From positions 5,088 through 69,087 of the forward strand of contig JAKLKQ010000033.1 of the NCBI GenBank assembly GCA_023150555.1: 64,000 bases of DNA, in the 5' to 3' direction. Positions 19,452 to 63,118 of the stretch are shown in pieces. The notes under the pieces were generated by a model, which was not told the DNA's origin, did no database searches, and saw only the letters and a program-made list of their open reading frames with translations. Positions within the stretch are counted from its first letter, which is position 1. Every line of letters begins with the position of its first letter. Made by a program: the position numbers and the translations under genes. This DNA comes from Planctomycetota bacterium. Its GTDB lineage: Bacteria > Planctomycetota > SZUA-567 > H5-PLA8.

Positions 19452-19518
19452 CGGAAATCTTGCGGGGACCGGGGGCCGGGATCCGGATGCCGGGATTCTC
19501 GACCGCAGGTTCTGACAG

Positions 19519-46297: not shown

Positions 46298-46370
46298 GGC
46301 ATGGGCGCGCAACTGCGCGCGTGAACAAAGAATACCGTTTGCGGCGTTTCCTACAAGCGTGAGGCGGGCG

Positions 46371-48347: not shown

Positions 48348-48456
48348 ACGATTTGCCCGACGCCCGATTGCACACGTGCGCAAATGTGTGCCCCATGCAC
48401 GTTCAGACTATACTCGATTTCTCGATGCGTAGAAACGGTTTAGCGCGGCTGCGAGT

Positions 48457-49647
48457 TCAAGAAACGGCCAGGGTTTCGGCGCTGCTGCGCTTCGACTGGA
48501 TGCTGCGGCATGGCGGCTCATCGGGAAGTTCGCGCGGCGGGCCGCCGATCTTCGAGAGGTCGTAATCACGCGCCGTCTCGTAGAACGCGACGACGTTCTC
48601 GATCGAACAGTCGAAGCTCACCACGTTGGACGCGCGGAACATGTATCCGCCGTTGTAGGCGCAGCAGCGCATCAGGTAGTCGACCTCGCGCTTGACGTCC
48701 GCGACCGTCCCGAAAGGCAGCGTGCGCTGTACGCTGCCGCCGCCGTCGAGGGTGATCTTATCGCCGAAATCGCGTTTGATTCGCGCCGGGTCGACGCTTT
48801 CGGGCTGCAGCGGGTTGACTATGTTAAAGCCGACCTCGATCAGATCCGGGATGATCTCCGTGATGTTCCCGTCGCTGTGAAAGAAGAAGGTCACGTCCGG
48901 GTTGACCTCGCGCGTGCCGGCGATCAGGCGCTTCCAGAACTGCTTGTCCAGATTGCGCCAACTCTCGGGCGAGACCATCATGCGCTTCTGCATCGCCACG
49001 TCGCCCCAATAGCTGAACTGGTCGACGCCCGCCGCCGCACAGGGCCGCGTAACCAGCAGGCAGTACTGCAGGATGCGGTCTTGGAAGGCCTCCACCCATT
49101 CCGGATTCTCGACGTAGTCACACAGGAAGTTCTGCATTCCGCGCATGCGCCACGCCTGCTTGAAGGGATGCGCGCCGCTGCTTCCATGGACCCAATAGCC
49201 TTGCGCCTTGAGCAAGCGTACCTTTTCGGCGAGGTCCGGCGGCACGACAATGCGGTCGGCCTTCGGCCAGTCGAAGCTGTCGAGATCGTCGGTTTTGGCG
49301 AACGGCCCGCTGATCCACTCCAGGTACTTTCCGTTCTCCCCCACCCGTTCCACGACGCCCCAGCGGTCCTCGAAGGTACGCTCGTCGTGCAGGATCGTCC
49401 GCCCGATGTTGCCGAAAGGGCCGTACAGTTCACCGTTGATGCATTTCTCATACTCCGGAAAGAGTGTCTTGACGCCGGCCGAGCGCGAGAGGTCCGCATC
49501 GAGAATCATAGCCACCTCTTGCTCGCTGCCGACCTTGTAGTACGCCTTCGCCGCCTCTGTGACCTCGTCGCGCCAGCCCAGACTGATCGGGATGCGGTCG
49601 GGCATCTGGTGATTGAGGACGGCACGAATGCGTTCGCGCGGGGTCAT
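48457..49647 (-). CDS. Uroporphyrinogen decarboxylase (URO-D) family protein, MtaA/CmuA-like paralog
   Basis: MTPRERIRAVLNHQMPDRIPISLGW is the URO-D family N-terminal pattern. A similar paralog lies at 18099-19451. Confidence 0.7.
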   Translation of the reverse strand: MTPRERIRAVLNHQMPDRIPISLGWRDEVTEAAKAYYKVGSEQEVAMILDADLSRSAGVKTLFPEYEKCINGELYGPFGNIGRTILHDERTFEDRWGVVERVGENGKYLEWISGPFAKTDDLDSFDWPKADRIVVPPDLAEKVRLLKAQGYWVHGSSGAHPFKQAWRMRGMQNFLCDYVENPEWVEAFQDRILQYCLLVTRPCAAAGVDQFSYWGDVAMQKRMMVSPESWRNLDKQFWKRLIAGTREVNPDVTFFFHSDGNITEIIPDLIEVGFNIVNPLQPESVDPARIKRDFGDKITLDGGGSVQRTLPFGTVADVKREVDYLMRCCAYNGGYMFRASNVVSFDCSIENVVAFYETARDYDLSKIGGPPRELPDEPPCRSIQSKRSSAETLAVS

Positions 49648-49985
49648 GGATGGCTCCTTGCCGGGCCGGAAGAATCCATTTCTTTAATCTATGTGTATAT
49701 CCTAATACCCAGAATGTCACGTATCTACCGCTGCAATATTCTTGTCCGATCCTGCAACCTGGCCCAGGCAAAGGCACTAGGTGTGCCCTCCGGCTCGAAT
49801 ACGGCGCACCACTTTTGCTGAAATCCGGCCCGGGTGCCGCCACATATGGCCAGTGCAGCCAACCCGCAACACGCGAAAAAGAGTAGATTTCAGATATAAA
49901 GCTCGTTATATATACTTTCGTGCGCCCCTTGCCCTGTTAGGGCTCGGCGCGGGTATGCCTCTTCCTCCTGTCGGGAAGGCAGGCT

Positions 49986-51365
49986 ATGGAACGTTGGATC
50001 CCCGGCCTATTAGTGGTTCTCGCAACCGCGGCGCTGACGTCGTGGCTGCTGGCAAATCCCTCCGTACCCGTCGAACCGCGCGTACCCGCCAGCACCGTAG
50101 ACGAATCGCCTGCCGAGACTAAGGCGGGCGCAGCGTCCAGCCGGCTGATCCCAGGTTCCGGCACGCCTTCGTCCCATCCGGGCGCATGGACGTGTTTTCG
50201 CGGCGAGGAGCGCGACGGACTCGGCCACGACACCGTGCGCCTGTCGCGGCAGTGGCCGGCCGATGGTCCTCGCGAGCGCTGGCGCCTGGACGCCGGCGAA
50301 GGCTACGCCGGCGCGGCGGTCCGGGCCGGCCGTGTCTATCTGCACGACTACGACCAAGCTACACAGGTAGAAGCCATCCGATGCCTCTCCTTTGACGACG
50401 GCCGCGAGATCTGGCGCTTCGCCTACCCCAACGTGATCAAACGCAACCACGGCATGTCTCGCACCGTGCCCGCCGTCGGCGAGAAGCACCTGGTCGCCTT
50501 CGGGCCGAAGTGCCATGTCACCTGCCTGGATCCGGCGACCGGCGCGCTGCGCTGGCAGCTGGATCTCGTACGGGACTTTGGCTCCAAGGTTCCGCCGTGG
50601 TACGCGGGGCAGTGCCCGCTGCTGGAAGATGGCCGGGTGATCCTGGCACCCTGCGGAGACGACCTGCTGATCGCGGTGAATGCCGACGACGGCAAGGTTC
50701 TTTGGCGCACGCCCAACCGTCTTGCCTGGAAGATGACCCACGCGAGCGTCGTGCCCATGGCGCTCGCCGGACGCCGAACGTACCTGTATGCAGGCAGCGG
50801 CGGCATTGCGTGCGTCGACGCCGCAGGCGGCACGCTGCTGTGGACAACGGACCTCTGGAAGATCAGCATCGCGACGATCGCCACCCCGGTTCCAGCCGGC
50901 GATGGCCGCATCTTCGTGGCCGGGGGCTACAACGCCGGCGCGGCGATGCTGCAGGTCGAGCCCGACGGTGCGGGCTACGGCGTGCGCGAGGCCTGGCGCC
51001 TGGCGCCCGAAGTCTTCGGCGCGACGCAGCAGACGCCCATCCTCTTCGAGAACCATCTTTACGGTATCCGGCCCGACGGCGAACTGGCCTGCCTGGACCT
51101 CGACGGAAAGCTGCGCTGGACGAGTGGCCCGCAGCACCGCTTCGGGCTGGGGCCGCTCCTGATCGCCGGCGGTCTGCTCTACGCGATGAATGACGACGGA
51201 TTGCTCTCGATGTGCGAGGCCGTGCCGGACGCCTTCCGTCTGCTCGCGCAGGCCAAGGTGCTCTACGGGCACGACGCATGGGGTCCGATGGCCCTGGCAG
51301 GCGGGCGCTTGATCGCGCGTGATCTTACCCAACTCGTTTGCCTCGACGTCGCGGAGAAGCCCTGA
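49986..51365 (+). CDS. Membrane-anchored PQQ-like beta-propeller repeat protein (BamB-like family)
   Basis: N-terminal TM (IPGLLVVLATAALTSWLLA). WTCFRGEERDG and repeated A..A.DG..LW motifs are typical of PQQ_2/PQQ_3 propellers. Confidence 0.7.
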   Translation: MERWIPGLLVVLATAALTSWLLANPSVPVEPRVPASTVDESPAETKAGAASSRLIPGSGTPSSHPGAWTCFRGEERDGLGHDTVRLSRQWPADGPRERWRLDAGEGYAGAAVRAGRVYLHDYDQATQVEAIRCLSFDDGREIWRFAYPNVIKRNHGMSRTVPAVGEKHLVAFGPKCHVTCLDPATGALRWQLDLVRDFGSKVPPWYAGQCPLLEDGRVILAPCGDDLLIAVNADDGKVLWRTPNRLAWKMTHASVVPMALAGRRTYLYAGSGGIACVDAAGGTLLWTTDLWKISIATIATPVPAGDGRIFVAGGYNAGAAMLQVEPDGAGYGVREAWRLAPEVFGATQQTPILFENHLYGIRPDGELACLDLDGKLRWTSGPQHRFGLGPLLIAGGLLYAMNDDGLLSMCEAVPDAFRLLAQAKVLYGHDAWGPMALAGGRLIARDLTQLVCLDVAEKP

Positions 51366-51379
51366 GGCGAGGCCACACG

Positions 51380-52414
51380 ATGGCGGCGGAAGAGATTCCT
51401 AACGAGGCCCCAAAGTCTCTGCACGCGGGAAACCTGGCCATCGGCCTGGGCGCTGCTGCGATGGTGGCGCTCGCGCTTTTCCTGGTCTGGCGCGAAGGCC
51501 GCAGCGGGCGCCAAGCCGCGGAACTGGGCCCGGCCTTCCAGTACGACCTTGACGCGCTCAAAGAAGTGGATCCCGCGTTGATCGCCTACCACGAGACGGG
51601 CCGCGTCGAGAGCGGCTTGGAGCACGTGCGTGGCCTGGCGCTGGCGCCCGACGGAATGCTCTGGATCGCCGGTGACCGCGCGGTGAAGCGCTTCGACGCA
51701 CAGGGTCATCCCGGCGGCGAGATCGCTTTCGACGAAGACGTGCGTTGCGTCGCAGTGGACGGTGATCGGCTCTTGGTTGGCCTTCCGCGCCGGCTGATCA
51801 TCCTCGATACGAATGGCGTCGAATTGGCCCGTGGTCCCGACTTGGGGTCCGACGCGCTGCTGAGCGCCGTCGCGGTCTCGGGCGAGACGATCTACCTCGC
51901 CGATTCGGGACGCCGCCTGGTCCTTTGCTGCGATGCGTCGGGGAAGATCCTTGCGGAGATCGGCGCGCGCGACGCGGAGCGCGGCGTGCCCGGCCTGATC
52001 GTGCCCAGCCCCTACCTGGACGTGGCGGCCGGCGACGGCGAGGTCGTGTACGTCACCAACCCTGGACGCCATCAGGTGGAATCGTACACGCGCTCGGGAG
52101 ATCTAATCGGCAGTTGGGGCAAGCCAGCCATGCGCGTAGAAGGCTTCTCCGGCTGCTGCAACCCCGTCGCTTTCGCGCCCCTGCCCGGCGGGCGCTGCGT
52201 CGTCAGCGAGAAAGGACTCGCGCGCGTGAAGGTCATGGATGACGAAGGCAAGCTGCTCAGCCTCGTCGCCGCGCCGTCCGGTTTCGCGGAGAACGCCTTC
52301 GGCATCGACCTGGCCGCCGACGCGGCCGGGCGCGTCTACGTCCTCGACACAGGCACGCGCGCGGTGCGCATCTTCGAGCCGAACGCCGCGGTCGGCGGGA
52401 GCCCCGCGCCATGA
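51380..52414 (+). CDS. Membrane-anchored NHL-repeat / six-bladed beta-propeller protein
   Basis: N-terminal TM (LAIGLGAAAMVALALFLVW). Repeats such as GLALAPDGMLWIAGDRAVKRFD and IYLADSGRRLV are NHL-like. Confidence 0.55.
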   Translation: MAAEEIPNEAPKSLHAGNLAIGLGAAAMVALALFLVWREGRSGRQAAELGPAFQYDLDALKEVDPALIAYHETGRVESGLEHVRGLALAPDGMLWIAGDRAVKRFDAQGHPGGEIAFDEDVRCVAVDGDRLLVGLPRRLIILDTNGVELARGPDLGSDALLSAVAVSGETIYLADSGRRLVLCCDASGKILAEIGARDAERGVPGLIVPSPYLDVAAGDGEVVYVTNPGRHQVESYTRSGDLIGSWGKPAMRVEGFSGCCNPVAFAPLPGGRCVVSEKGLARVKVMDDEGKLLSLVAAPSGFAENAFGIDLAADAAGRVYVLDTGTRAVRIFEPNAAVGGSPAP

Positions 52415-52644
52415 CGAATGAACCTTGGCAAACGAACCGCCGCGGGTTCCTGCACAGCGCGGTGCGCTTGGGCGTATTCGGGGCGTTGGGCTGGTTGTTC
52501 ACGCACTTGGCCGGACGCGCGCTGCGGAATCCCGAAGCCTGCTCGGGGCAGGGCCTCTGCGGGCGCTGCGGCCTGGCGCGGAATTGCGCGTTGCCCCGCG
52601 CCATCCTGCACCGCGCCGACCAAAAGGAGCGTCTCCGTGGCTGA
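52411..52644 (+). CDS. Small Tat-signal Cys-rich protein (77 aa), hypothetical
   Basis: Twin-arginine motif TNRRGFLHSAVRLGVFGALGWLF. Four Cys in CSGQGLCGRCGLARNC. SD GGGAG upstream. Start overlaps the upstream stop, and its 3' end overlaps the next gene by 8 bp. Confidence 0.4.
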   Translation: MTNEPWQTNRRGFLHSAVRLGVFGALGWLFTHLAGRALRNPEACSGQGLCGRCGLARNCALPRAILHRADQKERLRG

Positions 52645-53239
52645 CGCGCACCAGCACGCACCAGAGTCGCCCGCCTCCGGCGGCGCCGGGCCCTCGCGCC
52701 GCGACTTCCTGCGCCAGAGCCTGCGCGGCGCGGCGTTCCTGGCCCTGGGCGGCGCAGCAGGATTTCTGGCCTCGCGAACCGCGCGCGCCGGAAACATCTG
52801 GCAGATCGATCCCTACCTATGCGTGCAGTGCGGCAAGTGTGCCACGCATTGCGTCTTGAACCCGTCGGCCGTGAAGTGCGTGCACGCCTACGAGATGTGC
52901 GGGTACTGCGAACTCTGCACGGCCTTCTTCGAGCCCGATCCCAACGGACTGAACACCGGCGCCGAGAACCAGCTCTGCCCGACCGGCGCCATCGTGCGCA
53001 CCTTCGTCGAGGATCCCTACTTCGAGTATCGCATCACCGAGGACCTCTGCATCGGCTGCGCGAAATGCGTGAAGGGCTGCACCGCCTTCGGCAACGGTTC
53101 CATGCACCTGCAAGTCCGCCACGACCGCTGCCTCAACTGCAACGAATGTTCCATCGCAGTGGCCTGCCCCGCGGGCGCCTTCAAGCGCGTGCCCGCGAAC
53201 CGCCCGTACCTGATGAAGGGCAAAAGGAGCGAGCCGTGA
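52637..53239 (+). CDS. Tat-exported tetra-[4Fe-4S] ferredoxin, NapG/MauM-like
   Basis: Tat signal SRRDFLRQSLRGAAFLALGGAAG. Four Cys clusters: CVQCGKCATHC, CGYCELC..CPTGAI, CIGCAKCVKGC, CLNCNECSIAVACP. SD AAGGAG lies 8 nt upstream of GTG 52637. Confidence 0.7.
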   Translation: MADAHQHAPESPASGGAGPSRRDFLRQSLRGAAFLALGGAAGFLASRTARAGNIWQIDPYLCVQCGKCATHCVLNPSAVKCVHAYEMCGYCELCTAFFEPDPNGLNTGAENQLCPTGAIVRTFVEDPYFEYRITEDLCIGCAKCVKGCTAFGNGSMHLQVRHDRCLNCNECSIAVACPAGAFKRVPANRPYLMKGKRSEP

Positions 53240-54549
53240 GACGGACGCGGGGGCTCCTCCTGCTGGCCGCGCTGGCCGCCGCATGTACCGGGGCGTTCGG
53301 GGAAGAGCGCTTCCCGCCGCCGGAGTTCACCGCCACCCAGTACGCTTTGCCCGCTCCCACCCGCCCGGAAGCACGCGACGGAATGCGTGCCGGCGTGGAT
53401 GTCGCGGTGCTGTTCGGCGCGCTTTGCCTTTCCGCATGGCTGGTCTTGCGCAAGCGTTCGCGCCGCGGCGTCTATGCGCTGATGGTCTTCTCCATCGCCT
53501 ACTTCGGGTTCTACCGCGAAGGGTGCGTATGCCCCATCGGCGGTATCCAGAACGTCTCGCAGGCCGCGTGGGCCGCGGACTTCGTTCTGCCGCTCTCGGC
53601 GCTGGCCTTCTTCTTCCTGCCTCTGGTCTTCACCCTGATCTTCGGGCGCGTCTACTGCGCATCGGTCTGTCCGCACGGCGCGTTGCAGGACGCAGTCGTA
53701 TTGAAACCCGTACAGGTGCCGGCCTGGCTCGATCACGCGCTGGGGCTGCTCGCCTACCTCTACCTCGGCCTGGCGGTGCTATGGGCCGTAACGGGCGCGG
53801 CGTACGTCATCTGCGAGTACGATCCCTTCGTGCCGCTCTTCCGCATGACCGGCAGCGTCAACATGCTCACGCTCGGCGCCGTCTTCCTGCTGGCCGGCGC
53901 CTTCGTGGGTCGGCCGTACTGCCGCTACCTCTGCCCGTACGGCGCGATCCTGCGCCTGCTCTCGCCGCTCTCGCGTTGGAAGGTCTCGATCTACCCCGAC
54001 CGCTGCATCGACTGCCGGCTCTGCGACACGTCCTGTCCCTACGGTGCCATCCGTCCGACCACGCCGGTAGGCCCCGCGCCGCCGCGCGCGCCCGACCGCA
54101 GGCGGCTCGCCATAACGATGGTACTGCTGCCGCTGATCGTGGCGCTTTGCGCCTTGCTGGGTTCCGGTCTGTCCGGACCTTTGGCGCGCATGCATCCTGC
54201 GGTGCAGCGTGCGGAGGCCGTCGCGCGCGGCGCCGAGAGCGTTGCGGATCTCACGAAGGACGACGCCGACCGCCTGCTGGCCTTCCGGCAGAACGCGGCA
54301 ACGGCGGCGGCTCTTCCGGAGGAAGCGCGCGACGTGATGGAACGCTTCCATCGCACCGCACCCTGGTTCGGCGCGTGGGTCGGCCTGGTGATCGCCGTGA
54401 AGTTGATCGCCTTGACGCTGCGACGCCGCCGCGACGAATACCTCGCCGACCGTGGCGCCTGCGTCGCCTGCGCGCGCTGCTTCGACTACTGCCCCGGCGA
54501 GAAGGGGCTGCTCGATCCGGAGATCGCCGCAAGGGCACGGCGGCCATGA
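53236..54549 (+). CDS. Integral-membrane polyferredoxin, NapH/MauN/CcoG-like
   Basis: TM helices with two CxxxCP motifs (YCASVCPHGALQD, YCRYLCPYGAI). C-terminal CIDCRLCDTSCPYGAI and CVACARCFDYCP are [4Fe-4S] motifs. SD AAGGAG lies upstream of GTG 53236. Confidence 0.7.
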   Translation: MRRTRGLLLLAALAAACTGAFGEERFPPPEFTATQYALPAPTRPEARDGMRAGVDVAVLFGALCLSAWLVLRKRSRRGVYALMVFSIAYFGFYREGCVCPIGGIQNVSQAAWAADFVLPLSALAFFFLPLVFTLIFGRVYCASVCPHGALQDAVVLKPVQVPAWLDHALGLLAYLYLGLAVLWAVTGAAYVICEYDPFVPLFRMTGSVNMLTLGAVFLLAGAFVGRPYCRYLCPYGAILRLLSPLSRWKVSIYPDRCIDCRLCDTSCPYGAIRPTTPVGPAPPRAPDRRRLAITMVLLPLIVALCALLGSGLSGPLARMHPAVQRAEAVARGAESVADLTKDDADRLLAFRQNAATAAALPEEARDVMERFHRTAPWFGAWVGLVIAVKLIALTLRRRRDEYLADRGACVACARCFDYCPGEKGLLDPEIAARARRP

Positions 54550-56312
54550 TGCGCCCTGTTCCCCCCTCCGACCCGCAGGCCCTGCGCCGGCACCAGGCGC
54601 GGTACCTGCTGGCCAGCCGCAGCGCGTTGGTGGCCGGCGTTTTCACGCTGCTGGTGGCCGCGCTGCTGGCGCTGAACTTCGCGCAGCGGCAGAGCACCGA
54701 TCCGCTCGAGCACCCCGAACTGGCGGCGCTGAAAGTACGGCTGGCGGCGGAGCCGCGCAGCAGCGCGTTGAAAACGCAGATCCGGCAACTCGACCAGGAA
54801 CTGCGCGCCGAGTACTTCCGCTACCAGTCGCGCGCGCATGCGGGCGCATGGCTGCTGCTCGGCGGCGCCGTCGTCTTCCTGGTCTCCATTTTCGGAATGA
54901 CCACGCTGCACCCTTCTGCGCCGCAGCCCCTTCGGGGGCTGGAACGCGACGCGCGGCAGTGGAGCGAACCGCGGCGCGCGCGCTGGGCGGTGGGCCTGCT
55001 CGGAGCAGCCGTTATCGGCGGCCTCGCACTGATTGCGGTGCTCGTCAGCGCACCGGCGCTGCCCGATAGCTCCGATGCAGCGGCTGGCGCCGTCGCCGCC
55101 TCGGGCCAGGCTTCGCCCGAAGCCCCGATTGACGAAACCGCCATCGCACGCAATTGGCCGCGCTTCCGCGGACCCGACGGCAGCGGCCGCGCCGCTGACG
55201 GCGGTATCCCGGCGACGTGGGACGTCTCGAGCGGCGAGAACGTGCTTTGGAAGTCGCCGATCCCGCTGCCCGGGGTAGGCTCGCCCATCGTCTGGGAGAA
55301 CCTCGTCGTCGTGACCGGCGCGGAAAAGGATCAACGCGCAGTGTACGGTCTCGACGCGGCGACGGGCAAGCTGCTCTGGACGGGCCGCGGGGAACGCATC
55401 GCCGAAAGCCCCGCCGAAGCGCCCGAGGTCATGGAAGACACGGGCTTCGCCGCGCCCACGCCCGCCACCGACGGCCAGCGCGTCTACGCGATCTTCGCCA
55501 ACGGCGACCTGATCGCCTTCACGCTGAAAGGCCAGCGCGTCTGGGCGCGCGCGCTGGGCATGCCGGCCAACGGGTACGGACACGCCGCCTCGCTGCTGGT
55601 TTGGAAGGACCTTCTGCTTGTGCCCTGGGACCAGTCGGAGAACGGCAGACTGTTCGCACTCGATGCAGCCACGGGCAAAACGGTCTGGGAGGAGCCGCGC
55701 GAAGTTCACTGTTCGTGGACGACGCCCGTCGTCGCGAAGCTTGCCGGCGGCGATGCACTAATCACCGCCGCCGCGCCCAAGGTCATTGCCTACGGCCTGC
55801 CCAAGGGCGAGGAAACATGGTCGGTCGAAGGCCTCGAAGGCGAACTGGGGTCGTCGCCTGTCTGGGACGGCCAGCACGTATTTGCGGTCGGCACCGATTC
55901 GAACCTGCTTGCCATCGAGCCCGGCGCGCACGGAAGCGCACGGGTGGCATGGAAGACCGACAAGGACCTCCCCGACATCACCAGCCCGCTGTCCGACGGC
56001 GAGCGGCTCTGGCTGCTCACCACGCAGGGCCGGGTGACCTGCCTTGCGGCGAAAGACGGAACGGAATTTTACGGCCAGGAACTCGACGCCAGCTTCTTCG
56101 CCTCGCCGACGCTGGTTGGCGAACGCGTTCTGCTCATATCGGCCTCGGGCAAGGCCTTCTGGCTCGCGTCCGGAGCCGAGTACCGCCTGCTGGGCACCGC
56201 CGAATTCGGCGAGAAAGTTCATGCTTCGCCGGCCTTGGCGGGCGGGCGCCTGTTCGTGCGCGGCGAACGCCATCTCTTCTGCATCGCACCACGCGGAGGG
56301 CCCAAGCCGTGA
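54546..56312 (+). CDS. Membrane-anchored PQQ-like beta-propeller repeat protein, paralog of 49986-51365
   Basis: N-terminal TM (ALVAGVFTLLVAALLAL) and a second helix. NWPRFRGPDGSGRA plus repeated PQQ-like blades (LWK, GLDAATGKLLW, ALDAATGKTVW). ATG overlaps the upstream stop. Confidence 0.7.
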   Translation: MMRPVPPSDPQALRRHQARYLLASRSALVAGVFTLLVAALLALNFAQRQSTDPLEHPELAALKVRLAAEPRSSALKTQIRQLDQELRAEYFRYQSRAHAGAWLLLGGAVVFLVSIFGMTTLHPSAPQPLRGLERDARQWSEPRRARWAVGLLGAAVIGGLALIAVLVSAPALPDSSDAAAGAVAASGQASPEAPIDETAIARNWPRFRGPDGSGRAADGGIPATWDVSSGENVLWKSPIPLPGVGSPIVWENLVVVTGAEKDQRAVYGLDAATGKLLWTGRGERIAESPAEAPEVMEDTGFAAPTPATDGQRVYAIFANGDLIAFTLKGQRVWARALGMPANGYGHAASLLVWKDLLLVPWDQSENGRLFALDAATGKTVWEEPREVHCSWTTPVVAKLAGGDALITAAAPKVIAYGLPKGEETWSVEGLEGELGSSPVWDGQHVFAVGTDSNLLAIEPGAHGSARVAWKTDKDLPDITSPLSDGERLWLLTTQGRVTCLAAKDGTEFYGQELDASFFASPTLVGERVLLISASGKAFWLASGAEYRLLGTAEFGEKVHASPALAGGRLFVRGERHLFCIAPRGGPKP

Positions 56313-58684
56313 ACGCCCCCGCATCGCTCCCGATAGATCCCGCGCCAGCTGCGCCGCGCGCCGACCTCGCACCAATCGAGACAATCGTCGGCAAACTGGG
56401 CCGCACGCGCGAGCAGCTCATCCCGATCCTCCAGGCGATCCAGGCGCATTACCGGTACCTGCCGAAAGAGGCCCTGGAGCGCGTCTGCGCACTGACTGAG
56501 ATCACACCCGCGCAACTCGTCAGCGTCGCTACCTTCTATAAGCAGTTCCGCCACACGCCCTGCGGCAAGCACCTGATCCGCGTCTGCCACGGCACGGCTT
56601 GCCACGTGTCCGGAGCAGGCGCGATCAGCGAAGCTTTCGAGAAGCACCTGCACCTGCCGCCCGGTCAGAGCACCGACGCGGAAGGCGCCTTCACGCTCGA
56701 AAAGGTCGCCTGCCTGGGCTGCTGCAGCCTCGCGCCCGCTGTGCAGATCGACGATGGCGTCTACGGAAACCTCACACCGGGCGCGGTGCCGTACGTGCTC
56801 GAGGAAGTGCGCCGCGCGGAGAAGCAGGGGTCGACGAACGGCGACCGCCCGTCGCGCAACGGCGACGGCGCATTCGGCGAGATCCGCATCGCGCTGGACT
56901 CCTGCTGCCTGGCGCGCGGCGCCGACAAGGTCTTTGCTTCGCTGCAGCACGTCGCCGAACGCTTCCGCCTTCCCGCGCGCGTCAAACCGGTGGGCTGCAC
57001 CGGCCTGAGCTGCCACGCGCCGCTGATCGAAATCGTGCGACCCGGCCTGCCCAGGATCCTCTACGCGGACATAAAGCCGGAGGACGCCGAAGCCATCGCG
57101 CTGCGGCACTTCGAGCCGCGCTCCTGGTGCAACCGCCTGCGCTCGGCCGCGACGCGGGCTTTGGACGCGCTCGTCGACGATACCTTGCCTGCGCGGAATG
57201 CTCTGCCGGCCGAGGCCGCTCCGGTACGCGAATTCCTAGGGCGGCAGCTGCGCTTGGCCACCGAGCACAGCGGCGAGATGAATCCGCTGGACCTCGCCGA
57301 GTACCAGGCGCGCGGCGGCTTCCAGGCGCTGGAACGCGCTATGAAGGAACGCACGCCCGACGAACTGATCGCCGAGATCACGAAGAGCGGCCTGCGCGGG
57401 CGAGGCGGCGCAGGGTACTCCACAGGGACGAAATGGCGCCAGGTGCGCGACGCCTCCGGCTTGACCAAGTACGTGATCTGCAACGGCGACGAAGGCGATC
57501 CCGGCGCCTTCATGGACCGCATGATCCTGGAGTCGTATCCCTTCCGCGTGATCGAGGGCCTCGCCGCCAGTGCGTGGGCCGTCGGCGCGAGGGAAGGCAT
57601 CTTCTACATCCGCGAGGAGTATCCGCTGGCCGTGCAGCGCATCGAACAGGCAATCGCGCGCTGCGAAGACGCCGGCATCCTGGGGCGAACGGAGAGCGAC
57701 AGCGCGCCATGCTTCCGCGTCGTGCGCGGGGCCGGCGCGTTCGTCTGCGGCGAAGAGACCGCGCTGATCGCCTCGCTGAAAGGCGAGCGCGGCCGCCCGC
57801 GTCTGCGACCGCCCTATCCCAGTGAGTGCGGCTTCCGCGGTTGCCCGACGCTGGTGAACAACGTCGAAACGCTCGCGCTGGTGTCATGGATCCTGCGCAA
57901 TGGCGCCGAATCCTTCACAAAGCTCGGCACCCCGCGCAGCGCAGGCACCAAGGTCTTCGCGCTGGCCGGCAAGGTCCGCCGCAGCGGACTTGTGGAAGTA
58001 CCGATGGGCATCACCCTGCGCGAGATCGTGGAGAAACTGGGCGGCGGCGTTCCCAACGGCAAGCGCTTGAAGGCCGTGCAGATCGGCGGGCCCAGCGGAG
58101 GTTGCGTGCCGGCGTCGCTGGCCGACACGCCCATCGATTACGAGGCGCTGGTCGATGCCGGCGCGATCATGGGTTCCGGCGGCATGGTGGTACTCGACGA
58201 AGACGACTGCATGGTCGACATCGCACGCTACTTCCTGCGCTTTGCCAACGACGAATGCTGCGGGCGCTGCTCCTTCGGGCGCATCGGCAGCCGCCGCTTG
58301 CTAGACATCCTCGAACGAATCTGCACGGGCCAGGGCCGTCCCGGCGACCTGGACGACATGCAGCGACTGGGCCGGGCGATGAAAGTGGCCTGCCTTTGCG
58401 GCTTAGGTAAGACCGCGCCCAACCCGGTGCTCTCCACGCTGCGGCATTTCCGCGAGGAATACGAGGCTCATCTGGCGGGCCGCTGCCCGGCCGGACGCTG
58501 CAAGGAGTTGATCCGCTACGAGATCGGGGAGAGCTGCATCGGCTGCACGCTCTGCGCGCAGCACTGCCCCGCCGACTGCATTCCCATGGCGCCGTATCAG
58601 GTCCACACCATCGACAGCGCGAAGTGCACGCGCTGCGACGCATGCCGGCAGGTCTGCCCGGTGGACGCCGTGAAGGTGAGGTGA
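56309..58684 (+). CDS. Fused NuoE-like [2Fe-2S] plus NuoF-like (NAD(P)H/FMN/[4Fe-4S]) plus C-terminal 2x[4Fe-4S] ferredoxin subunit; Bfu-family (HydB/HndC/StnAB-like) flavoprotein
   Basis: NuoE motifs: CHGTACHVSGA...CLGCCSLAP. NuoF motifs: GLRGRGGAGYSTGTKW, VICNGDEGDPGAFMDR, CGRCSFGR. C-terminal CIGCTLCAQHCP and CTRCDACRQVCP. GTG overlaps the upstream stop (GTGA). SD GGAGGG lies 8 nt upstream. Confidence 0.85.
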   Translation: MNAPASLPIDPAPAAPRADLAPIETIVGKLGRTREQLIPILQAIQAHYRYLPKEALERVCALTEITPAQLVSVATFYKQFRHTPCGKHLIRVCHGTACHVSGAGAISEAFEKHLHLPPGQSTDAEGAFTLEKVACLGCCSLAPAVQIDDGVYGNLTPGAVPYVLEEVRRAEKQGSTNGDRPSRNGDGAFGEIRIALDSCCLARGADKVFASLQHVAERFRLPARVKPVGCTGLSCHAPLIEIVRPGLPRILYADIKPEDAEAIALRHFEPRSWCNRLRSAATRALDALVDDTLPARNALPAEAAPVREFLGRQLRLATEHSGEMNPLDLAEYQARGGFQALERAMKERTPDELIAEITKSGLRGRGGAGYSTGTKWRQVRDASGLTKYVICNGDEGDPGAFMDRMILESYPFRVIEGLAASAWAVGAREGIFYIREEYPLAVQRIEQAIARCEDAGILGRTESDSAPCFRVVRGAGAFVCGEETALIASLKGERGRPRLRPPYPSECGFRGCPTLVNNVETLALVSWILRNGAESFTKLGTPRSAGTKVFALAGKVRRSGLVEVPMGITLREIVEKLGGGVPNGKRLKAVQIGGPSGGCVPASLADTPIDYEALVDAGAIMGSGGMVVLDEDDCMVDIARYFLRFANDECCGRCSFGRIGSRRLLDILERICTGQGRPGDLDDMQRLGRAMKVACLCGLGKTAPNPVLSTLRHFREEYEAHLAGRCPAGRCKELIRYEIGESCIGCTLCAQHCPADCIPMAPYQVHTIDSAKCTRCDACRQVCPVDAVKVR

Positions 58685-58687
58685 ACG

Positions 58688-60313
58688 ATGCCGCGAGTGA
58701 CCATCGACGGCCGTAGCGTTGACGTCGAACCCGGCACAACCATTCTTGATGCCGCGCGGAAACTCGGCATCGAGATCCCCACGCTCTGCCACCTCGCCGA
58801 TCACGACCCCGAGACCAGCTGCATGGCCTGCGTTGTGCGCGTCAACGGCAGCGCGAGCCTGACGCCGTCCTGCGCGCGCATAGCGGAAGAAGGCATGGCC
58901 GTCGAGAGCGAGGTCGAGGATATCCGCGCGATCCGCCGCATGGCGTTCGAACTCTTGCTCAGCGACCACATCGGCGACTGCATCGCGCCGTGCCACCACA
59001 CCTGCCCCGCGCACATGGAGATCCCGCTGATGCTGCGGCAGGTCAGCGAGGGCCAGATGCGCGAAGCCCTGCGCACGATCAAGAAGGACATCGCGCTGCC
59101 CGCCGTGCTCGGACGCGTCTGTCCGGAGGTCTGCGAACGCACCTGCCGCCGCACGTTCTACGACCACCCGGCTTCGATCTGCATGGTCAAGCGCATCGTG
59201 GCCGACGAAGACTTCGCCAGCGGCGATCCCTACGTGCCCGAGCGCGCGCCCGCCAGCGGCAAGCGCGTCGCCGTCGTGGGAAGCGGACCAGCGGGCCTCG
59301 CCGCCGCCTATTACCTCGCGCAGGATGGCCACGAGGTCGTCATCTACGATGCGAGAGACGAACCCGGCGGCGCGCTGCGTTACAATGTTCCGGAGGAGAA
59401 GCTGCCACGCGGCGTCCTGAACGCGGAAATCGGGATCATCCGCCGCCTGGGCGTGACGTTCCGGATGAACACGAGGCTGGGCAGCGACCTGACCTTGGCG
59501 GATCTGCGCGGCGATTTCGACGCCGTCTTTCTCGGCACCGGCGAACTGGAACCCGGCAAGGCGTACGAGTTGGGCTTGCACGCGCCCGGTACCCGGCTTC
59601 CGGCGAACCTCTCCACGCTCGAGACCGCCGCGCCCGGCGTCTTCGCGGGCGGCGACCTCGTGCGTCGGCGCAGGCTGGCGGTACGGTCCATTGCCGACGG
59701 AAAAATCGCTGCGCATGGCATTTCGCGGTACCTGCGCGGATTGAAACCCGAAGGCGAATCGCACGGCTGCGCCTCGCGCATGGGCCAAGTGGACCGCGAG
59801 ACCATCGATCTGCTGATGACTGGCAAGGTGAGCTCCGAGGACCGCCACGTGCCCCAGACCGGGCCATCCGAAGGCTTCACGCCGACGGAAGCACGGGTCG
59901 AGTCCATGCGCTGCCTGCATTGCGACTGCCGTGCGAAAGACAACTGCGGCCTGCGGGACTTTTCCGAATCCTACGAGGCCGCCCAAGGCCGCTTCAAAGG
60001 CAGCCGCCGCGTGCTGGTGCCGCTCCAGGAAGGCAGCCGGCTGATCTTCGAACCGGGCAAGTGCATCGCCTGCGGGCTGTGCGTGCAGATCACATGCAAG
60101 GGCGGCGAGCCCCTGGGCCTCACGTTTATCGGGCGCGGCTTCGACATGCGCATCGGCGTGCCGTTCGACCGGCCGATTGCGGATGGCCTAACCGTCACTG
60201 CCGACGCCTGCGTGAACGCGTGCCCTACCGGCGCGATCGCCTTCGCCGATTCCGAATTGCTCCGGCAGCCCTGGGAACCGCGCGTGGCCGTGGAGGACCG
60301 CGTCCATGACTGA
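58688..60313 (+). CDS. NuoG-N-like [2Fe-2S] ferredoxin domain fused to GltD/NfnB-like NAD(P)H-FAD oxidoreductase, plus C-terminal ferredoxin (StnC-like)
   Basis: MPRVTIDGRSVDVEPGTTILDAARKLGIEIPTLCH...SCMACVV is 2Fe-2S. The GltD-like motifs are CPAHMEIPLMLRQVSEGQ..AL, CPEVCERTC, GKRVAVVGSGPAGLAAAYYLAQDGHEVVIYD and GGDLV. C-terminal CIACGLCVQ. SD AAGGTGAGGTGA lies upstream. Confidence 0.85.
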   Translation: MPRVTIDGRSVDVEPGTTILDAARKLGIEIPTLCHLADHDPETSCMACVVRVNGSASLTPSCARIAEEGMAVESEVEDIRAIRRMAFELLLSDHIGDCIAPCHHTCPAHMEIPLMLRQVSEGQMREALRTIKKDIALPAVLGRVCPEVCERTCRRTFYDHPASICMVKRIVADEDFASGDPYVPERAPASGKRVAVVGSGPAGLAAAYYLAQDGHEVVIYDARDEPGGALRYNVPEEKLPRGVLNAEIGIIRRLGVTFRMNTRLGSDLTLADLRGDFDAVFLGTGELEPGKAYELGLHAPGTRLPANLSTLETAAPGVFAGGDLVRRRRLAVRSIADGKIAAHGISRYLRGLKPEGESHGCASRMGQVDRETIDLLMTGKVSSEDRHVPQTGPSEGFTPTEARVESMRCLHCDCRAKDNCGLRDFSESYEAAQGRFKGSRRVLVPLQEGSRLIFEPGKCIACGLCVQITCKGGEPLGLTFIGRGFDMRIGVPFDRPIADGLTVTADACVNACPTGAIAFADSELLRQPWEPRVAVEDRVHD

Positions 60314-61442
60314 ACGTCATCGTCACTACTTCGACTACGCAGCCTCCTGCCCGCCGTGGAAGGAGGCCCTCGATGCCGCCGACCGCTGCGCGCTGGAATT
60401 CCCGGGCAATCCGTCCGCGCAGCACGAAGCAGGACGGTGCGCGCAGGAAACGTGGGAGACCCTGGCGCAGCGATTCACGGCGCTCTGCAAATTCACAAAC
60501 GGGCGATTGGTAGCCTGCTCCGGCGGCACCGAGGCGAACAACCTGGCGATTCGCGGCGTCATGAACCGGTATCCGGCCGGGCGCCTGCTGCTCGCCGCCG
60601 ACGCCCATCCCTCCGCATGGTTCGCGACCAAAGAGTACGCAAAGCGCGTAGACATTCTGCCGCTCGAGAAAAACGGAGAGATCTCACCGCTGAAACTATC
60701 CAAGATGATCCGGAAAGACACGCTGCTCGTCAGCTGCATGCACGCGTCAAACGAGACCGGATTCGTACAAAACATCGCCGTGCTGGGCGCCGCATGCGCG
60801 GAGCGGAAGGTCCTCTTTCACGTCGATGGCGTACAGGCCGTCGGACACCTTCCGCTGGACCTGAAAATCGTTCCTGTCAATTTGTATGCCTTTTCGGTGC
60901 ACAAATTCGGTGGCCCGCGCGGCTTCGGGGGCCTGTTCGTTCGGTTCCCGGACCTTTCGCCGCAGATCCTTGGCGGCGACCAGCAGGACGGCCTGCGCGC
61001 CGGCACCGAGAACCTTCCCGGACTCGCGGGGTCCGTAGCGGCCCTGGAACAGTGTCTGGCGCGGATTGAGACGGAAATCCCGCGCCAGCGCGAGTTGGCG
61101 GCCGAACTGGTCGCCTCGGTTCAAGCATCTTTCCCATCGGTCCTCGTGAACTCGGACTCGGCGCACGGCCTGCCGGGCCTAGTGAGCCTCTCCTTTCCCG
61201 GCATCGACGCGCAGGTCTTGATCGCGGATCTGGATCTGCAGGGTTTCGCCGTCGCTGCGGGCGGCGCCTGCCATGCGCACCGCCGCGAACCGTCGCGCGC
61301 GATCCTGGCCCTGGGCCGCAGCAAGCGGGAGGCACAAGGCACGATCCGCATCAGCATGGGGCACGCCACGCGTCGGGACGAGGTCCTCGCGCTCGCCGAG
61401 GTGCTGGTCCAGGCGGCGGCACGCCAGGCGGCCTTGGCATGA
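60306..61442 (+). CDS. Cysteine desulfurase-like class V aminotransferase (NifS/IscS family)
   Basis: SGGTEANNLAIRG, the PLP-Lys motif SVHKFGGPRGFGGLFV, and AAGGACHA. ATG overlaps the upstream stop. Confidence 0.8.
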   Translation: MTERHRHYFDYAASCPPWKEALDAADRCALEFPGNPSAQHEAGRCAQETWETLAQRFTALCKFTNGRLVACSGGTEANNLAIRGVMNRYPAGRLLLAADAHPSAWFATKEYAKRVDILPLEKNGEISPLKLSKMIRKDTLLVSCMHASNETGFVQNIAVLGAACAERKVLFHVDGVQAVGHLPLDLKIVPVNLYAFSVHKFGGPRGFGGLFVRFPDLSPQILGGDQQDGLRAGTENLPGLAGSVAALEQCLARIETEIPRQRELAAELVASVQASFPSVLVNSDSAHGLPGLVSLSFPGIDAQVLIADLDLQGFAVAAGGACHAHRREPSRAILALGRSKREAQGTIRISMGHATRRDEVLALAEVLVQAAARQAALA

Positions 61443-62326
61443 AGCCCGCGTTCTCGATCCAACCTCCTGCGGTCGCCGCCCTTCCGGCGCCCGCGGCCGT
61501 GGCCACGGCGAAGACCGATGCTGCCCTGCTCGCACAGGCCCCGCCGGCCTTGAAGGAATGCCTGCTGCGCATGATCGAGACCGGCGCGCCGCACCTGATT
61601 CTCTCCGGCAGCGACCCGATTGATCCGCACGGCTGCTGCCCCGAAAGCCTGGTCGGCGCGGCAAACCGCCTGGTCGAGGCCGGCGTCCTCGGCCGGTGGC
61701 GAAGGCCCGGGCCCATCGGCGCCTGCCCCGTCACCGTCTACGCCTTTCGCGGCGAGATCTCGATAGTGGACCGGCAGTCGGTGTTTACCGTGGACGTGAC
61801 CTTGCGGCGTTCCCTCCTGCCGGCATTGAAGGGCGAACGCCGCCGAGCGAGGGTCCTCATCGCCCTGCGCGCCGGGTTACTCGCCTTCGTTATCGCCACG
61901 CTGGTGGTGATCGCCTTCGGCGCCAGCGTCCAATCGACGGGCGGCAACGGCGCCGCGGCCCTGACCGCCGGACTCCCCCGCGAGAACATGACGGTCCTGG
62001 TGCTCTTCCGTACATCGGCTCGCTGCCGATTCTGCGAGCACATGGACGTCTTCGCGCGTGAAGGTCTGTCCGCTCAATTCAATGACAACCTGCGCGACGG
62101 ACGCATCGCCTACCGCGAGATCGATTTCGACCGCACGGAATACCGCGACTTGCGCGGCGCCTTCGGGCTCGCGTCCACGACGCTGGCGCTCTTCGAGATT
62201 CGCGGCGGCCAGGCGGTGCGCTGGAAGGTCCTGGAGGAGGCCTGGCAACTGACGGAGGACCGCGAGGCGTTTCTCGAGATGACCGCGCGCGAAGTCGCGG
62301 CCTTTAGGGAGGCGCCCCATGAATGA
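61439..62326 (+). CDS. Membrane-anchored thioredoxin-like protein with CxxC (CRFC) motif
   Basis: Central TM helix (VLIALRAGLLAFVIATLVVIAFGA). C-terminal VLVLFRTSARCRFCEHMD...YREIDFD is a thioredoxin-fold pattern. ATG overlaps the upstream stop. Confidence 0.45.
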   Translation: MKPAFSIQPPAVAALPAPAAVATAKTDAALLAQAPPALKECLLRMIETGAPHLILSGSDPIDPHGCCPESLVGAANRLVEAGVLGRWRRPGPIGACPVTVYAFRGEISIVDRQSVFTVDVTLRRSLLPALKGERRRARVLIALRAGLLAFVIATLVVIAFGASVQSTGGNGAAALTAGLPRENMTVLVLFRTSARCRFCEHMDVFAREGLSAQFNDNLRDGRIAYREIDFDRTEYRDLRGAFGLASTTLALFEIRGGQAVRWKVLEEAWQLTEDREAFLEMTAREVAAFREAPHE

Positions 62327-63008
62327 GGCGCTTGCACTATCGTTGAGCGCCGCCGGGCTGGGACTCCTGACCGCGGTACATCCCTGCCCCTTGGCAGGAC
62401 ACCTCGGCGCGCTCGCCGCTCTGAGCGGCTGGTCGGGGTGCCCGAGGCGCGTCTGGTTCGCAGGCCTGGCGCTCGCAGCGGGATTCGCCGTAGCGTACGC
62501 TGCGCTGGGCATCCTGCTGAGTTGGGGGCTCGCCTCGGCGCCCTACACGTCCGAAGTTCTGCGATCGTACCTAACCCGCCTGCTGGGCCCGTTCCTGGTG
62601 GTCGCGGGCATGCTGATGGCAGGATTGCTCGGCGGAAGCGGAGCACCAGCGCTGCGCGAGCGGGTATCGGCGTGGCTTGACCGGCGCGCATGGGGAAGTT
62701 GGATCGCCTTCCCCGCCGGCATGCTGCTCGCGCTGAGTTTCTGCCCTGCTTCCGCGGCGCTCTTCTTCGGCGTACTGCTGCCGCTGGCGCTGACAAAGCA
62801 GATGCCGGTTATCCTGCCGGTCGCTTACGGCGCGGGCGTGGCCTTGCCGCTGGCGGCCGTAGCATTCTTCGTCGCGTTCGGAACGCAGTGGCTAGGGCGG
62901 AAATCGGAACGCGAGGCGCGGACCCGAACGGTGCGCCTGGCGGCGGGCACCGTTTTGATCCTGGTGGGCATCGCCCACGCATTGCAGCATGTGTACGGCA
63001 TTCTCTAG
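62319..63008 (+). CDS. CcdA/DsbD-family transmembrane thiol-disulfide electron transporter (DsbD_2)
   Basis: A polytopic protein with two membrane-embedded Cys in helix-start positions (VHPCPLAG and LSFCPASAALFFG), the DsbD/CcdA hallmark. Confidence 0.6.
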   Translation: MNEALALSLSAAGLGLLTAVHPCPLAGHLGALAALSGWSGCPRRVWFAGLALAAGFAVAYAALGILLSWGLASAPYTSEVLRSYLTRLLGPFLVVAGMLMAGLLGGSGAPALRERVSAWLDRRAWGSWIAFPAGMLLALSFCPASAALFFGVLLPLALTKQMPVILPVAYGAGVALPLAAVAFFVAFGTQWLGRKSEREARTRTVRLAAGTVLILVGIAHALQHVYGIL

Positions 63009-63022: not shown

Positions 63023-63118
63023 TGGCGGGAGTGCATGGGAATCGAACCCACCCAACGCCCTTGCGGACGTCGCTACGGCTTTGAAGGCCGCGGCCGTCAC
63101 CAGACGACCTCCACTCCC
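63023..63118 (-). tRNA. selC: tRNA-Sec (selC), anticodon UCA, 96 nt
   Basis: The reverse complement reads GGGAGTGG A GGTCGTCTGGTGACGGCCGC GGCCTTCAAAGCC ... long variable arm ... GGGTTCGATTCCC ... GCACTCCC G CCA. The anticodon loop CUUCAAA matches E. coli selC. The D-arm TCGTCTGGTGA is nearly identical to E. coli selC. A long variable arm, an extended acceptor stem and a CCA end are all present. Confidence 0.8.

Follow-up and report, generated by a model that had tools for sequence, protein, structure and literature searches.

This study concerns a cluster of eleven genes in a 64,000-nucleotide stretch of DNA from a bacterium of the phylum Planctomycetota (contig JAKLKQ010000033.1, positions 5,088 to 69,087; hereafter the window, numbered from its first nucleotide). 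Within positions 49986-63008 of the window, eleven open reading frames (ORFs), designated here g1 to g11, follow one another on the plus strand. Their products include beta-propeller proteins, a NapG-like and a NapH-like iron-sulfur protein and a putative Bfu-type flavoenzyme, and we argue below that the first eight genes make up a conserved cassette that may encode a redox complex spanning the membrane. The genes are as follows.

49986..51365, plus strand: g1, a PQQ_2-type beta-propeller of 459 amino acids (PF13360, 99.9 bits)
51380..52414, plus strand: g2, a membrane-anchored NHL propeller of 344 amino acids (AlphaFold2 model; GCCNP motif, C259-C260)
52411..52644, plus strand: g3, a small peptide of 77 amino acids with a twin-arginine-type N-terminus and four Cys (motif; conserved residues)
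52637..53239, plus strand: g4, a NapG-like ferredoxin of 200 amino acids with an SRRDFL motif and four [4Fe-4S] motifs (Fer4 family matches)
53236..54549, plus strand: g5, a NapH-like integral-membrane polyferredoxin of 437 amino acids (PF12801, 61 bits)
54546..56312, plus strand: g6, a PQQ_2-type propeller on an N-terminal anchor of three transmembrane segments, 588 amino acids (PF13360, 101.7 bits)
56309..58684, plus strand: g7, a BfuC-BfuB fusion (NuoE-NuoF-like) of 791 amino acids (Pfam 2Fe-2S_thioredx, Complex1_51K, NADH_4Fe-4S and Fer4_21)
58688..60313, plus strand: g8, a truncated BfuA (NfnA/StnC-like, a GltD-like flavoprotein) of 541 amino acids (Fer2_4, Fer4_20 and a flavin adenine dinucleotide (FAD) domain)
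60306..61442, plus strand: g9, a NifS/IscS-type pyridoxal phosphate (PLP) enzyme of 378 amino acids (PF00266, 170.6 bits)
61439..62326, plus strand: g10, a protein of 295 amino acids with one transmembrane segment and an ArsF-family CxxC domain (NF040494, 55 bits)
62319..63008, plus strand: g11, an ArsG-family/LysE-superfamily membrane protein of 229 amino acids with six transmembrane segments (NF040495, 159.6 bits)

Each of the eleven frames is open from start to stop with no internal stop codon, and their content of guanine plus cytosine (GC) is 0.79-0.87 at codon position 3 as against ~0.5 at position 2, the coding signature expected of a genome with 67% GC. The same gene set and coordinates had been given in an initial annotation made from the sequence, and they agree both with the open frames and with an independent gene caller, which returned identical coordinates for all eleven genes; the products called on six independent Logan metagenome contigs of the same sequence were likewise identical. 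The genes are tightly packed, with 4-nucleotide ATGA or GTGA overlaps at five junctions (g2/g3, g4/g5, g5/g6, g6/g7 and g9/g10), 8-nucleotide overlaps at three (g3/g4, g8/g9 and g10/g11) and a 3-nucleotide gap between g7 and g8, and a GGAG-like motif lies 6-12 nucleotides 5′ of most starts. The translational coupling initially described from g2 onward is thus largely as stated, except that g1 and g2 are separated by a 14-nucleotide gap and that the three longer overlaps are of 8 nucleotides.

The strongest indication that these genes act together comes from their conservation. The order g1-g8 (49986-60313) recurs in 12 genome loci (L007-L010 and L012-L019) distributed over at least four phyla, namely Planctomycetota, Armatimonadota, Bacteroidota and Candidatus (Ca.) Poribacteria. 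A genome scan with g5 identified four metagenome-assembled genomes (MAGs) of Planctomycetota that carry g1, g2 and g4-g8 in the same order with 37-72% identity, and in which an ORF of the size of g3 is recognisable by eye. Homologues of g2 lead to the same cassette in a Mariniphaga MAG (Bacteroidota), in an Armatimonadota MAG and on four further metagenome or MAG contigs of unassigned taxonomy, among them L015, in which g3 and g6 are lacking, and a search started from g8 finds it in the cultured anaerobe Anaerobaca lacustris (assembly GCA_030012215.1, contig JASCXX010000001.1, 92-114 kb) and on a contig of Ca. Poribacteria. The latter locus is rearranged, with g6-like, g1-like, g7 and g8 genes present and g2-g5 not seen there. 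A profile scan of metagenome contigs with g2 returned at least 589 relatives, of which 80 loci were kept for a census of neighbouring genes; the family comprises at least 150 clusters at 50% identity. Counting for each gene only the loci long enough to judge it, we found g1 in 40/48, g4 in 39/41, g5 in 32/34, g6 in 26/28, g7 in 23/24 and g8 in 22/22, always in the same order and on the same strand. The flavoprotein, NapGH-like and propeller genes are co-located in this order in ~95% of informative metagenome loci.

A small ORF lies between g2 and g4 in 48/63 loci, with a twin-arginine (RR) motif in 45 of these 48. In one metagenome locus (L028) the g3-type four-Cys motif forms an in-frame N-terminal extension of the NapG-like ferredoxin, which suggests that the two work as one iron-sulfur unit. 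By contrast, the long ORFs that would join g6 to g7 or g7 to g8 in other loci proved to be artefacts of ORF extension. The cassette tolerates disruption: in the Ca. Poribacteria contig (L019, 4419-5874) the propeller genes are separated from g7 by inserted genes for a transposase and a PIN-domain protein, and in L016 (12206-13328 and 18502-20761) g5 and g8 carry apparent frameshifts, which are possibly assembly errors. The initial annotation had named co-location of the flavoprotein, NapGH-like and propeller genes in related genomes as the check on its proposal, and the genes are found together and in the same order in the 12 genome loci as well as in the metagenomes. The synteny census rules out chance juxtaposition, and because the same order is maintained across phyla and metagenome loci, g1-g8 can be regarded, on comparative sequence grounds, as a functional and widespread unit.

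The products of g7 and g8 are predicted to form the cytoplasmic part of this unit. Residues 23-167 of g7 correspond to a NuoE-like [2Fe-2S] subunit (PF01257, 160.7 bits), followed by a BfuB part with a NuoF-like flavin mononucleotide (FMN)/NAD(H) domain and its [4Fe-4S] cluster motif (PF01512, 143.9 bits; PF10589, 100.3 bits). Residues 191-790 match NfnB of Caldicellulosiruptor (9bov_B, E 1e-189) from one end to the other, and they also align over the full length of StnB of Sporomusa (8oh5_B). The B2/Zn-site residues C634, C672, H721, C726 and C731 are conserved, with H-x-C-x-C in 32/32 orthologues, and their spacing matches that of the published site, C438/C476/H525/C531/C536, within one residue. 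According to Schut et al. (PMC9304861), the B2-site His is found in virtually all bifurcating BfuB proteins and is absent from non-bifurcating homologues. The C-terminal pair of [4Fe-4S] motifs (B3/B4; C743-C753 and C773-C783) does not vary among 10 orthologues, 32/32 have the motif, and this domain is predicted to offer a ferredoxin site, with NAD(H) bound at the FMN site.

The partner protein g8 retains the N-terminal [2Fe-2S] domain (Fer2_4), the GltD-type pair of [4Fe-4S] clusters, the FAD domain and the NuoG-type [4Fe-4S] clusters, with the cluster Cys conserved, and its closest relatives both by sequence and by predicted fold are NfnA and StnC. It aligns with these structures in two blocks, residues 2-287 with chain residues 4-288 and residues 301-517 with chain residues 451-671, such that a link of 13 residues replaces StnC residues 289-450; as its end corresponds to chain residue ~671 (of 1172-1178), the FdhF-like domain at the C-terminus is absent too. 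The AlphaFold2 model of g8 (mean predicted local distance difference test (pLDDT) score of 86.5) gives query-normalised Foldseek TM-scores of 0.85-0.87 with 9bov_A, 8oh5_C and 9n5u_A, with ~140 gap columns. The short form is general, as syntenic orthologue ORFs (first-start calls) are 501-584 amino acids long and the best 120 database relatives 517-563. In GltD and NfnB, a nucleotide-binding subdomain is inserted in the FAD domain. Since residues 102-565 of StnC form a GltD-like NADPH/FAD domain (PMC10482914), the block missing from g8 would be the NADP(H) subdomain, a last step that we infer from the GltD/NfnB architecture. The FAD of NfnABC forms the outer terminus of the chain FAD-A7-A6-A3-A2-A1-[B1-FMN-C1] (PMC11829005).

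By their sequences, g7 and g8 together qualify as a predicted Bfu enzyme of the NfnABC/StnABC type. The Stn/Bfu-type flavoprotein of the initial annotation is therefore recognisable in the Bfu core, which aligns with NfnB and StnB, but the NADP(H) subdomain has been deleted from g8 and, for this reason, g7-g8 is not regarded as a transhydrogenase. Many relatives of g8 carry names in their sources such as "NADPH-dependent glutamate synthase beta subunit-like", and in view of the absent NADPH subdomain this glutamate-synthase-type label is probably misleading.

Genes g4 and g5 are predicted to provide the connection to the periplasm. The 16 motif Cys of g4 would suffice for four [4Fe-4S] clusters, and among 10 orthologues 15 of them never vary and one is found in 9/10; the protein is 30% identical to E. 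coli NapG with the same motif layout, and an RR motif is present in 29/31 orthologues. With a twin-arginine signal and four [4Fe-4S] motifs it has the features of NapG-type proteins, and periplasmic export is predicted. The scores of g5 against the NapH/MauN family are low (TIGR02163, 47.9 bits, cutoff 213; NF007013, 41.2 bits, cutoff 234), but its two CX3CP motifs (C141/C145 and C229/C233) and [4Fe-4S] motifs (C257-C267 and C409-C419) align with those of E. coli NapH. Compared with that protein, g5 has an additional N-terminal signal-like segment and transmembrane helix, a GCxC and a CxYDPF motif, and a 140-residue insertion with a transmembrane hairpin that splits the two [4Fe-4S] motifs. 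GCxC, CxYDPF and both CX3CP motifs are present in 39/39 orthologues, and C97, C99 and C193 are invariant and specific to the subfamily. In the published topology of NapH, the CX3CP motifs are on the cytoplasmic side. With the motifs of g5 placed likewise and its hydrophobic segments assigned by hydropathy, C97, C99 and C193 would lie on the outer face of the membrane. None of the products contains a CxxCH haem c motif, and haem involvement was rejected for this reason.

The other four products of g1-g8 are a small protein and the three propellers. The small protein g3 consists of an RRGFL motif and a hydrophobic stretch, followed by C-x5-C-x2-C-x5-C-x-LP, with R10, R11, C44, C50, C53 and C59 conserved; it had no family match in profile searches. 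The AlphaFold2 model of g2 (mean pLDDT 90.5) comprises a transmembrane helix (19-41) and a six-bladed NHL propeller (70-335) whose signature is a vicinal Cys-Cys pair within the motif GCCNP, found in 217/221 family members and in 41/41 syntenic orthologues. Its fold neighbours in the PDB are TRIM-type NHL domains only, which give no functional clue. Two giant proteins, P0086 (4276 amino acids) and P0123 (7428 amino acids), contain 9 and 16 tandem stretches, respectively, that match the g2 NHL-family profile with very high scores. The other two propellers are anchored by predicted transmembrane segments, g1 by a helix or signal at 5-23 and g6 by segments at 27-45, 103-121 and 149-167, N-terminal to the propeller. 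Neither is a true BamB, since they score 36.6 (g1) and 78.7 bits (g6) against the BamB equivalog TIGR03300 (cutoff 285.2) and have transmembrane anchors in place of lipoboxes; the initial annotation had allowed that they might be unrelated BamB-type assembly factors, and the family searches argue against this. Family-level scores far under the cutoff also speak against pyrroloquinoline-quinone-dependent dehydrogenases (TIGR03075, 23 bits for g1 and 33 for g6, cutoff 480). Of the four conserved Cys of g1, C133, C369 and C452 occupy the first position of a Trp-docking repeat in different blades and C176 lies four residues upstream of a fourth such position (C180); they are probably structural, and we set them aside as a metal site.

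The gene set, the motifs, the domain loss in g8 and the synteny across phyla can be read from the sequences, and from them we infer the physical assembly, topology, direction and substrate of the system as follows. We propose that g1-g8 encode one membrane-spanning redox complex in which the third substrate of the Bfu core is the membrane branch and in which electrons most likely flow outwards, a proposal to which we assign a probability of roughly 55%. Because the NADP(H) subdomain of g8 is deleted, the third substrate is not expected to be NADP(H) and most likely lies across the membrane. NAD(H) would react at the FMN of g7 and ferredoxin would dock at its C-terminal 2x[4Fe-4S] domain, while the iron-sulfur chain of g8 would end in a GltD-type FAD left without its usual substrate site. 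From the FAD and iron-sulfur chain of g8, electrons could pass to the cytoplasmic [4Fe-4S] pair and CX3CP cysteines of g5, across the membrane to the three invariant outer-face cysteines, and then to the Tat-type (twin-arginine translocation) 4x[4Fe-4S] ferredoxin g4 together with the four-Cys mini-protein g3. The end point would be a periplasmic assembly of the three membrane-anchored propellers g1, g2 and g6. In the outward direction, NADH, possibly together with reduced ferredoxin (confurcation), would reduce a periplasmic or envelope substrate, for which the vicinal Cys-Cys of the g2 propeller is the best candidate reactive site; the presence of this pair beside iron-sulfur carriers suggests disulfide, persulfide or soft-metal chemistry. 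The initial annotation had pictured a transmembrane machine that delivers reducing power from the cytoplasm to propeller-type targets. The predicted anatomy of the cassette does fit an electron path across the membrane that links the periplasm with the NAD(H)/ferredoxin pool of the cytoplasm, but the assigned direction, and the propellers as targets rather than subunits, are conjectural.

The flanks of the cassette may bear on its function. Clustering of all flanking ORFs in 49 loci gave as recurrent families only propeller paralogues, an ABC ATPase, a duplicated FtsX permease and a GT4 glycosyltransferase, and on the strength of this unbiased analysis we rejected a hidden catalytic subunit in the flanks. 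Where present, the upstream module consists of a PQQ_2 propeller (~400 amino acids), the GT4 glycosyltransferase, a LolD/MacB-like ATPase and the duplicated FtsX permease (~1100 amino acids); examples are L087 (1632-8385), L013, L017, L018, L019 and about half of L021-L100. The cassette of the window lacks it and has a divergent URO-D/MtaA-like gene in its place. In A. lacustris an FtsX gene lies directly 5′ of the cassette, and the genes on its 3′ side (L018, 11625-21587) encode an FMN reductase, another PQQ_2 propeller, a zinc alcohol dehydrogenase, an AhpC/TSA peroxiredoxin and a CusCBA-type copper efflux system. A gene for methionine sulfoxide reductase (MsrA) is located upstream of the cassette in L015. 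These neighbours are possible hints of a link to stress or metals, or a coincidence.

The direction of flow is the point on which the nearest alternative differs. Run inwards, the same complex would have its periplasmic module oxidise a low-potential donor and its Bfu core bifurcate the electrons to NAD+ and ferredoxin, as in bifurcating hydrogenases and formate dehydrogenases. The cassette anatomy is silent on direction; Bfu enzymes can work in either direction, and in many of them electrons pass from the third substrate to NAD+ and ferredoxin (PMC9304861), and NapH-like modules occur with reductases as well as with periplasmic oxidases such as ExaA (PMC8238504). However, for electrons to be split between NAD+ (about -280 mV) and ferredoxin (about -450 to -500 mV), the potential of the donor has to lie near or below -370 mV (PMC10482914, PMC9304861), whereas the loci have no recurrent low-potential catalytic subunit, be it a hydrogenase, formate dehydrogenase, CO dehydrogenase or another, and the propellers have no recognisable metal or cofactor site apart from their cysteines. 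Outward flow is favoured because the enzyme for such a donor is not encoded, and we consider inward operation rather improbable. Slightly less probable again is a device for envelope biogenesis or repair which, together with the MacB/LolD-like ABC-FtsX and GT4 proteins, would supply reducing equivalents for processing a periplasmic or outer-envelope molecule, candidates being an oxidised protein thiol, a lipoprotein or a glycolipid, and would be neither respiratory nor dissimilatory. The upstream propeller/GT4/LolD-like ATPase/FtsX module in roughly half of the loci, GT4 orthologues that are 39-53% identical across phyla, the vicinal Cys-Cys of g2, which points to thiol chemistry, and the methionine sulfoxide reductase and peroxiredoxin genes near the cassette in two loci would all accord with it. 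The module is, on the other hand, not obligatory, as both the window and roughly half of the loci are without it; GT4 and ABC genes are very common, and their adjacency may partly reflect shared ancestry of the sampled contigs.

It could also be supposed that the cassette houses two independent neighbouring systems, a NapGH-type quinol dehydrogenase that serves the propellers and a soluble NuoEF/GltD-type NADH:ferredoxin or transhydrogenase enzyme. E. coli NapGH draws its electrons from quinol, g7 and g8 resemble the soluble NfnABC and StnABC enzymes, and in other loci g6, g7 and g8 are set further apart. Yet, across phyla, g6 is followed by g7 in 23/24 and by g8 in 22/22 of the informative loci, the search started from g8 returns to the same cassette (Anaerobaca) and to the rearranged Ca. 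Poribacteria locus, and g8 lacks the NADP(H) subdomain that defines a transhydrogenase, its short form being the cassette form. We regard this arrangement as very unlikely.

Several observations weigh against the proposal of a single complex with outward flow. L015 lacks g3 and g6, and L040 and L063 have g2 without the remaining genes; the ABC/FtsX and GT4 module accompanies the cassette in about half of the loci (FtsX in 16/29, GT4 in 9/21 and the propeller in 11/19). Tat export and topology are deduced from motifs, hydropathy and the analogy with NapH. The propellers could be scaffolds, as they fall into no enzyme family and their neighbours in fold are NHL domains that are not enzymes; the FAD of g8 could react with a soluble substrate in the cytoplasm; and the system may have a quinone link, since E. 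coli NapGH is a quinol dehydrogenase.

Comparison with known systems places the cassette between several of them. With the Type 1 Bfu enzymes NfnABC and StnABC (9bov, 8oh5 and 9n5u), g7 shares the FMN/NADH site, the B2/Zn residues and the 2x[4Fe-4S] domain, and g8 the [2Fe-2S] and GltD-type clusters, the FAD domain and the NuoG-type clusters. It differs from them in that g8 is without the NADP(H) subdomain and FdhF-like tail, that the NuoE and NuoF parts are fused in g7, and that the g7-g8 genes always occur within a cassette of membrane and periplasmic proteins. The pairing of a Tat-type 4x[4Fe-4S] ferredoxin with a membrane protein bearing 2xCX3CP and two [4Fe-4S] motifs resembles E. coli NapGH and MauMN, although identity is 24-30%, scores are below the NapH/MauN cutoff and g5 has its extra Cys, transmembrane helix and 140-residue insertion; napA, napB, napC and mau genes are found in none of the loci, and the pair probably has a cytoplasmic flavoenzyme as its partner, instead of or in addition to quinol. 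NapH-like proteins are regarded as modules that transfer electrons across the membrane on behalf of periplasmic enzymes (Meheust et al. 2021, PMC8238504), and NapH-like systems of the NosR and PceC/RdhC type serve several beta-propeller enzymes, NirS, ExaA and NosZ (PMC8238504). As in these, the NapH-like g5 may act as the transmembrane conduit, but they are defined by an ApbE-flavinylated FMN-binding domain (PMC8238504), of which there is none in the cassette; the NapG-like g4 and the four-Cys g3 would take the periplasmic role, with the Bfu module on the cytoplasmic side.

The predicted Mbh-Bfu and Nuo-Bfu complexes (Schut et al. 2022, PMC9304861) are also proposed to couple a BfuBC core to a membrane complex, but have proton-pumping arms of the complex-I/Mbh type, with quinone or protons as third substrate, whereas the cassette has a NapGH-like conduit and propellers. 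The survey of Bfu enzymes lists only the Mbh- and Nuo-type membrane-bound forms, and 18 of its 57 clades have no assigned third substrate (PMC9304861). The statement in the initial annotation that the combination matches no described system agrees with our literature search, of incomplete journal coverage, which found no published description of the g1-g8 gene combination.

Downstream of g8, the picture changes. Genes g9, g10 and g11 are found in 0/80 of the metagenome loci and are absent from the genome loci L007, L008, L013, L014, L017 and L018, and g10 is a near-orphan with 5 database relatives, each at least 67% identical. Of the single eleven-gene system initially proposed, g1-g8 thus stand as the conserved unit, and we excluded g9-g11 from it; they are a lineage-specific 3′ add-on. 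The parallel thiol route, with NifS as a maturation factor within the machine, falls with them. Being translationally coupled, they are probably co-expressed with g8 in this lineage. Gene g9 encodes a class-V aminotransferase of the NifS/IscS type that does not reach equivalog cutoffs (TIGR03402, 241 bits, cutoff 531) and has a PLP lysine (SVHK200) and an active-site cysteine loop (GGAC322HA). The product of g10 has a transmembrane segment at 140-158, a C-terminal ArsF-family domain (NF040494 cutoff 60) with a thioredoxin-like C196xxC199 motif, and HGCC65-66 in its N-terminal domain.

The last gene, g11, carries HPC23P and FC142P motifs within transmembrane segments and scores below the ArsG family cutoff of 200 (NF040495). 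CcdA/DsbD proteins carry Cys-Pro motifs in two transmembrane segments. In this respect g11 is similar, but the CcdA assignment initially given to it fails, as no DsbD or DsbD_2 profile matches even at E = 10 and Pfam gives only LysE (24 bits); the N-terminal domain of g10 is unique. The C-terminal domain of g10 and g11 resemble ArsF and ArsG of the ArsEFG system of Shewanella, which detoxifies nitro-aromatic arsenicals, although both score below the NCBIfam cutoffs and neither ArsE nor other ars genes are nearby. The domains initially assigned to g1, g2, g4, g5, g6, g7 and g9 are retained, and besides g11 the revisions concern g6, with three transmembrane segments, g8, without the NAD(P)H subdomain, and g10, whose C-terminal domain resembles the ArsF family.

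The remaining features around the operon are listed here.

49889..49916, plus strand: sigma-70-like promoter match, TTCAGA-16-TATACT, 9/12 positions, ~70 nucleotides 5′ of g1
63023-63118, minus strand: tRNA-Sec, anticodon TCA (Rfam, 74.8 bits; ARAGORN), convergent with the operon
44297-46312, minus strand: SelB, selenocysteine-specific elongation factor, 3.7 kb upstream of g1
46371-48383, minus strand: Ser/Thr protein kinase with three predicted C-terminal transmembrane segments, between SelB and the URO-D-like gene
48457-49647, minus strand, and 17964-19448, plus strand: URO-D/MtaA-CmuA-like (methyltransferase-type) paralogues

The promoter match sits in a divergent intergenic region of 338 nucleotides and, with 2 such sites against 0.8 expected, is weak evidence for a promoter; a search upstream of g1 for a riboswitch or other RNA found none, and terminator-like hairpins inside the g1-g11 cluster are no more frequent than in shuffled sequence. 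The URO-D-like gene at 48457-49647, divergent from g1, lies beside the cassette in no other locus. The operon is located between selB and tRNA-Sec, which lies 15-19 nucleotides past the stop of g11 on the opposite strand, and the NifS-like g9 could be a selenocysteine lyase; a role for g9 in selenium or sulfur mobilisation for the selenocysteine machinery is as plausible as one in the redox complex. Integration of a genomic island at tRNA-Sec was discounted, as an att-like repeat of the tRNA end is absent elsewhere in the window. The TGA of g7 and the ATG of g8 are in the same frame, 3 nucleotides apart and with a tRNA-Sec nearby, and we therefore considered a read-through fusion of g7 and g8 with selenocysteine at the junction (58682-58690). 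A hairpin resembling a selenocysteine insertion sequence is absent (z = -0.47) and the spacers of the orthologues are non-coding, and the TGA is probably an ordinary stop. The first part of the window (1-19500) is of a housekeeping nature, with genes for an LptF/G-like permease, PolX, a KpsF-type SIS/CBS protein and an LptD-like protein, as well as methylmalonyl-CoA mutase, a heptosyltransferase and a ROK-family protein.

Enzymes of the Bfu type hold a central place in anaerobic energy metabolism. More tentatively than the complex itself, we suggest that the cassette might represent a cytochrome-free and possibly quinone-independent transmembrane iron-sulfur wire that connects a flavin-based bifurcating or confurcating Bfu core directly to a new class of periplasmic reductase, whose active site would be the vicinal Cys-Cys on an NHL propeller beside a Tat-exported mini [4Fe-4S] protein. 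Equally speculative is the corollary that chemistry resembling that of ferredoxin:thioredoxin reductase (FTR) or heterodisulfide reductase would here take place outside the cytoplasm, and that the complex would constitute a fifth type of Bfu enzyme, one that crosses the membrane and is widespread among anaerobic members of the Planctomycetota, Armatimonadota, Bacteroidota and Ca. Poribacteria. If this is true, a Bfu core plugs into a NapGH-like conduit and low-potential electrons cross the inner membrane without cytochromes, and the uncharacterised "BamB-like" and NHL propellers, a large family, would gain a role. The occurrence of the cassette in the cultured A. lacustris makes the hypothesis directly testable.

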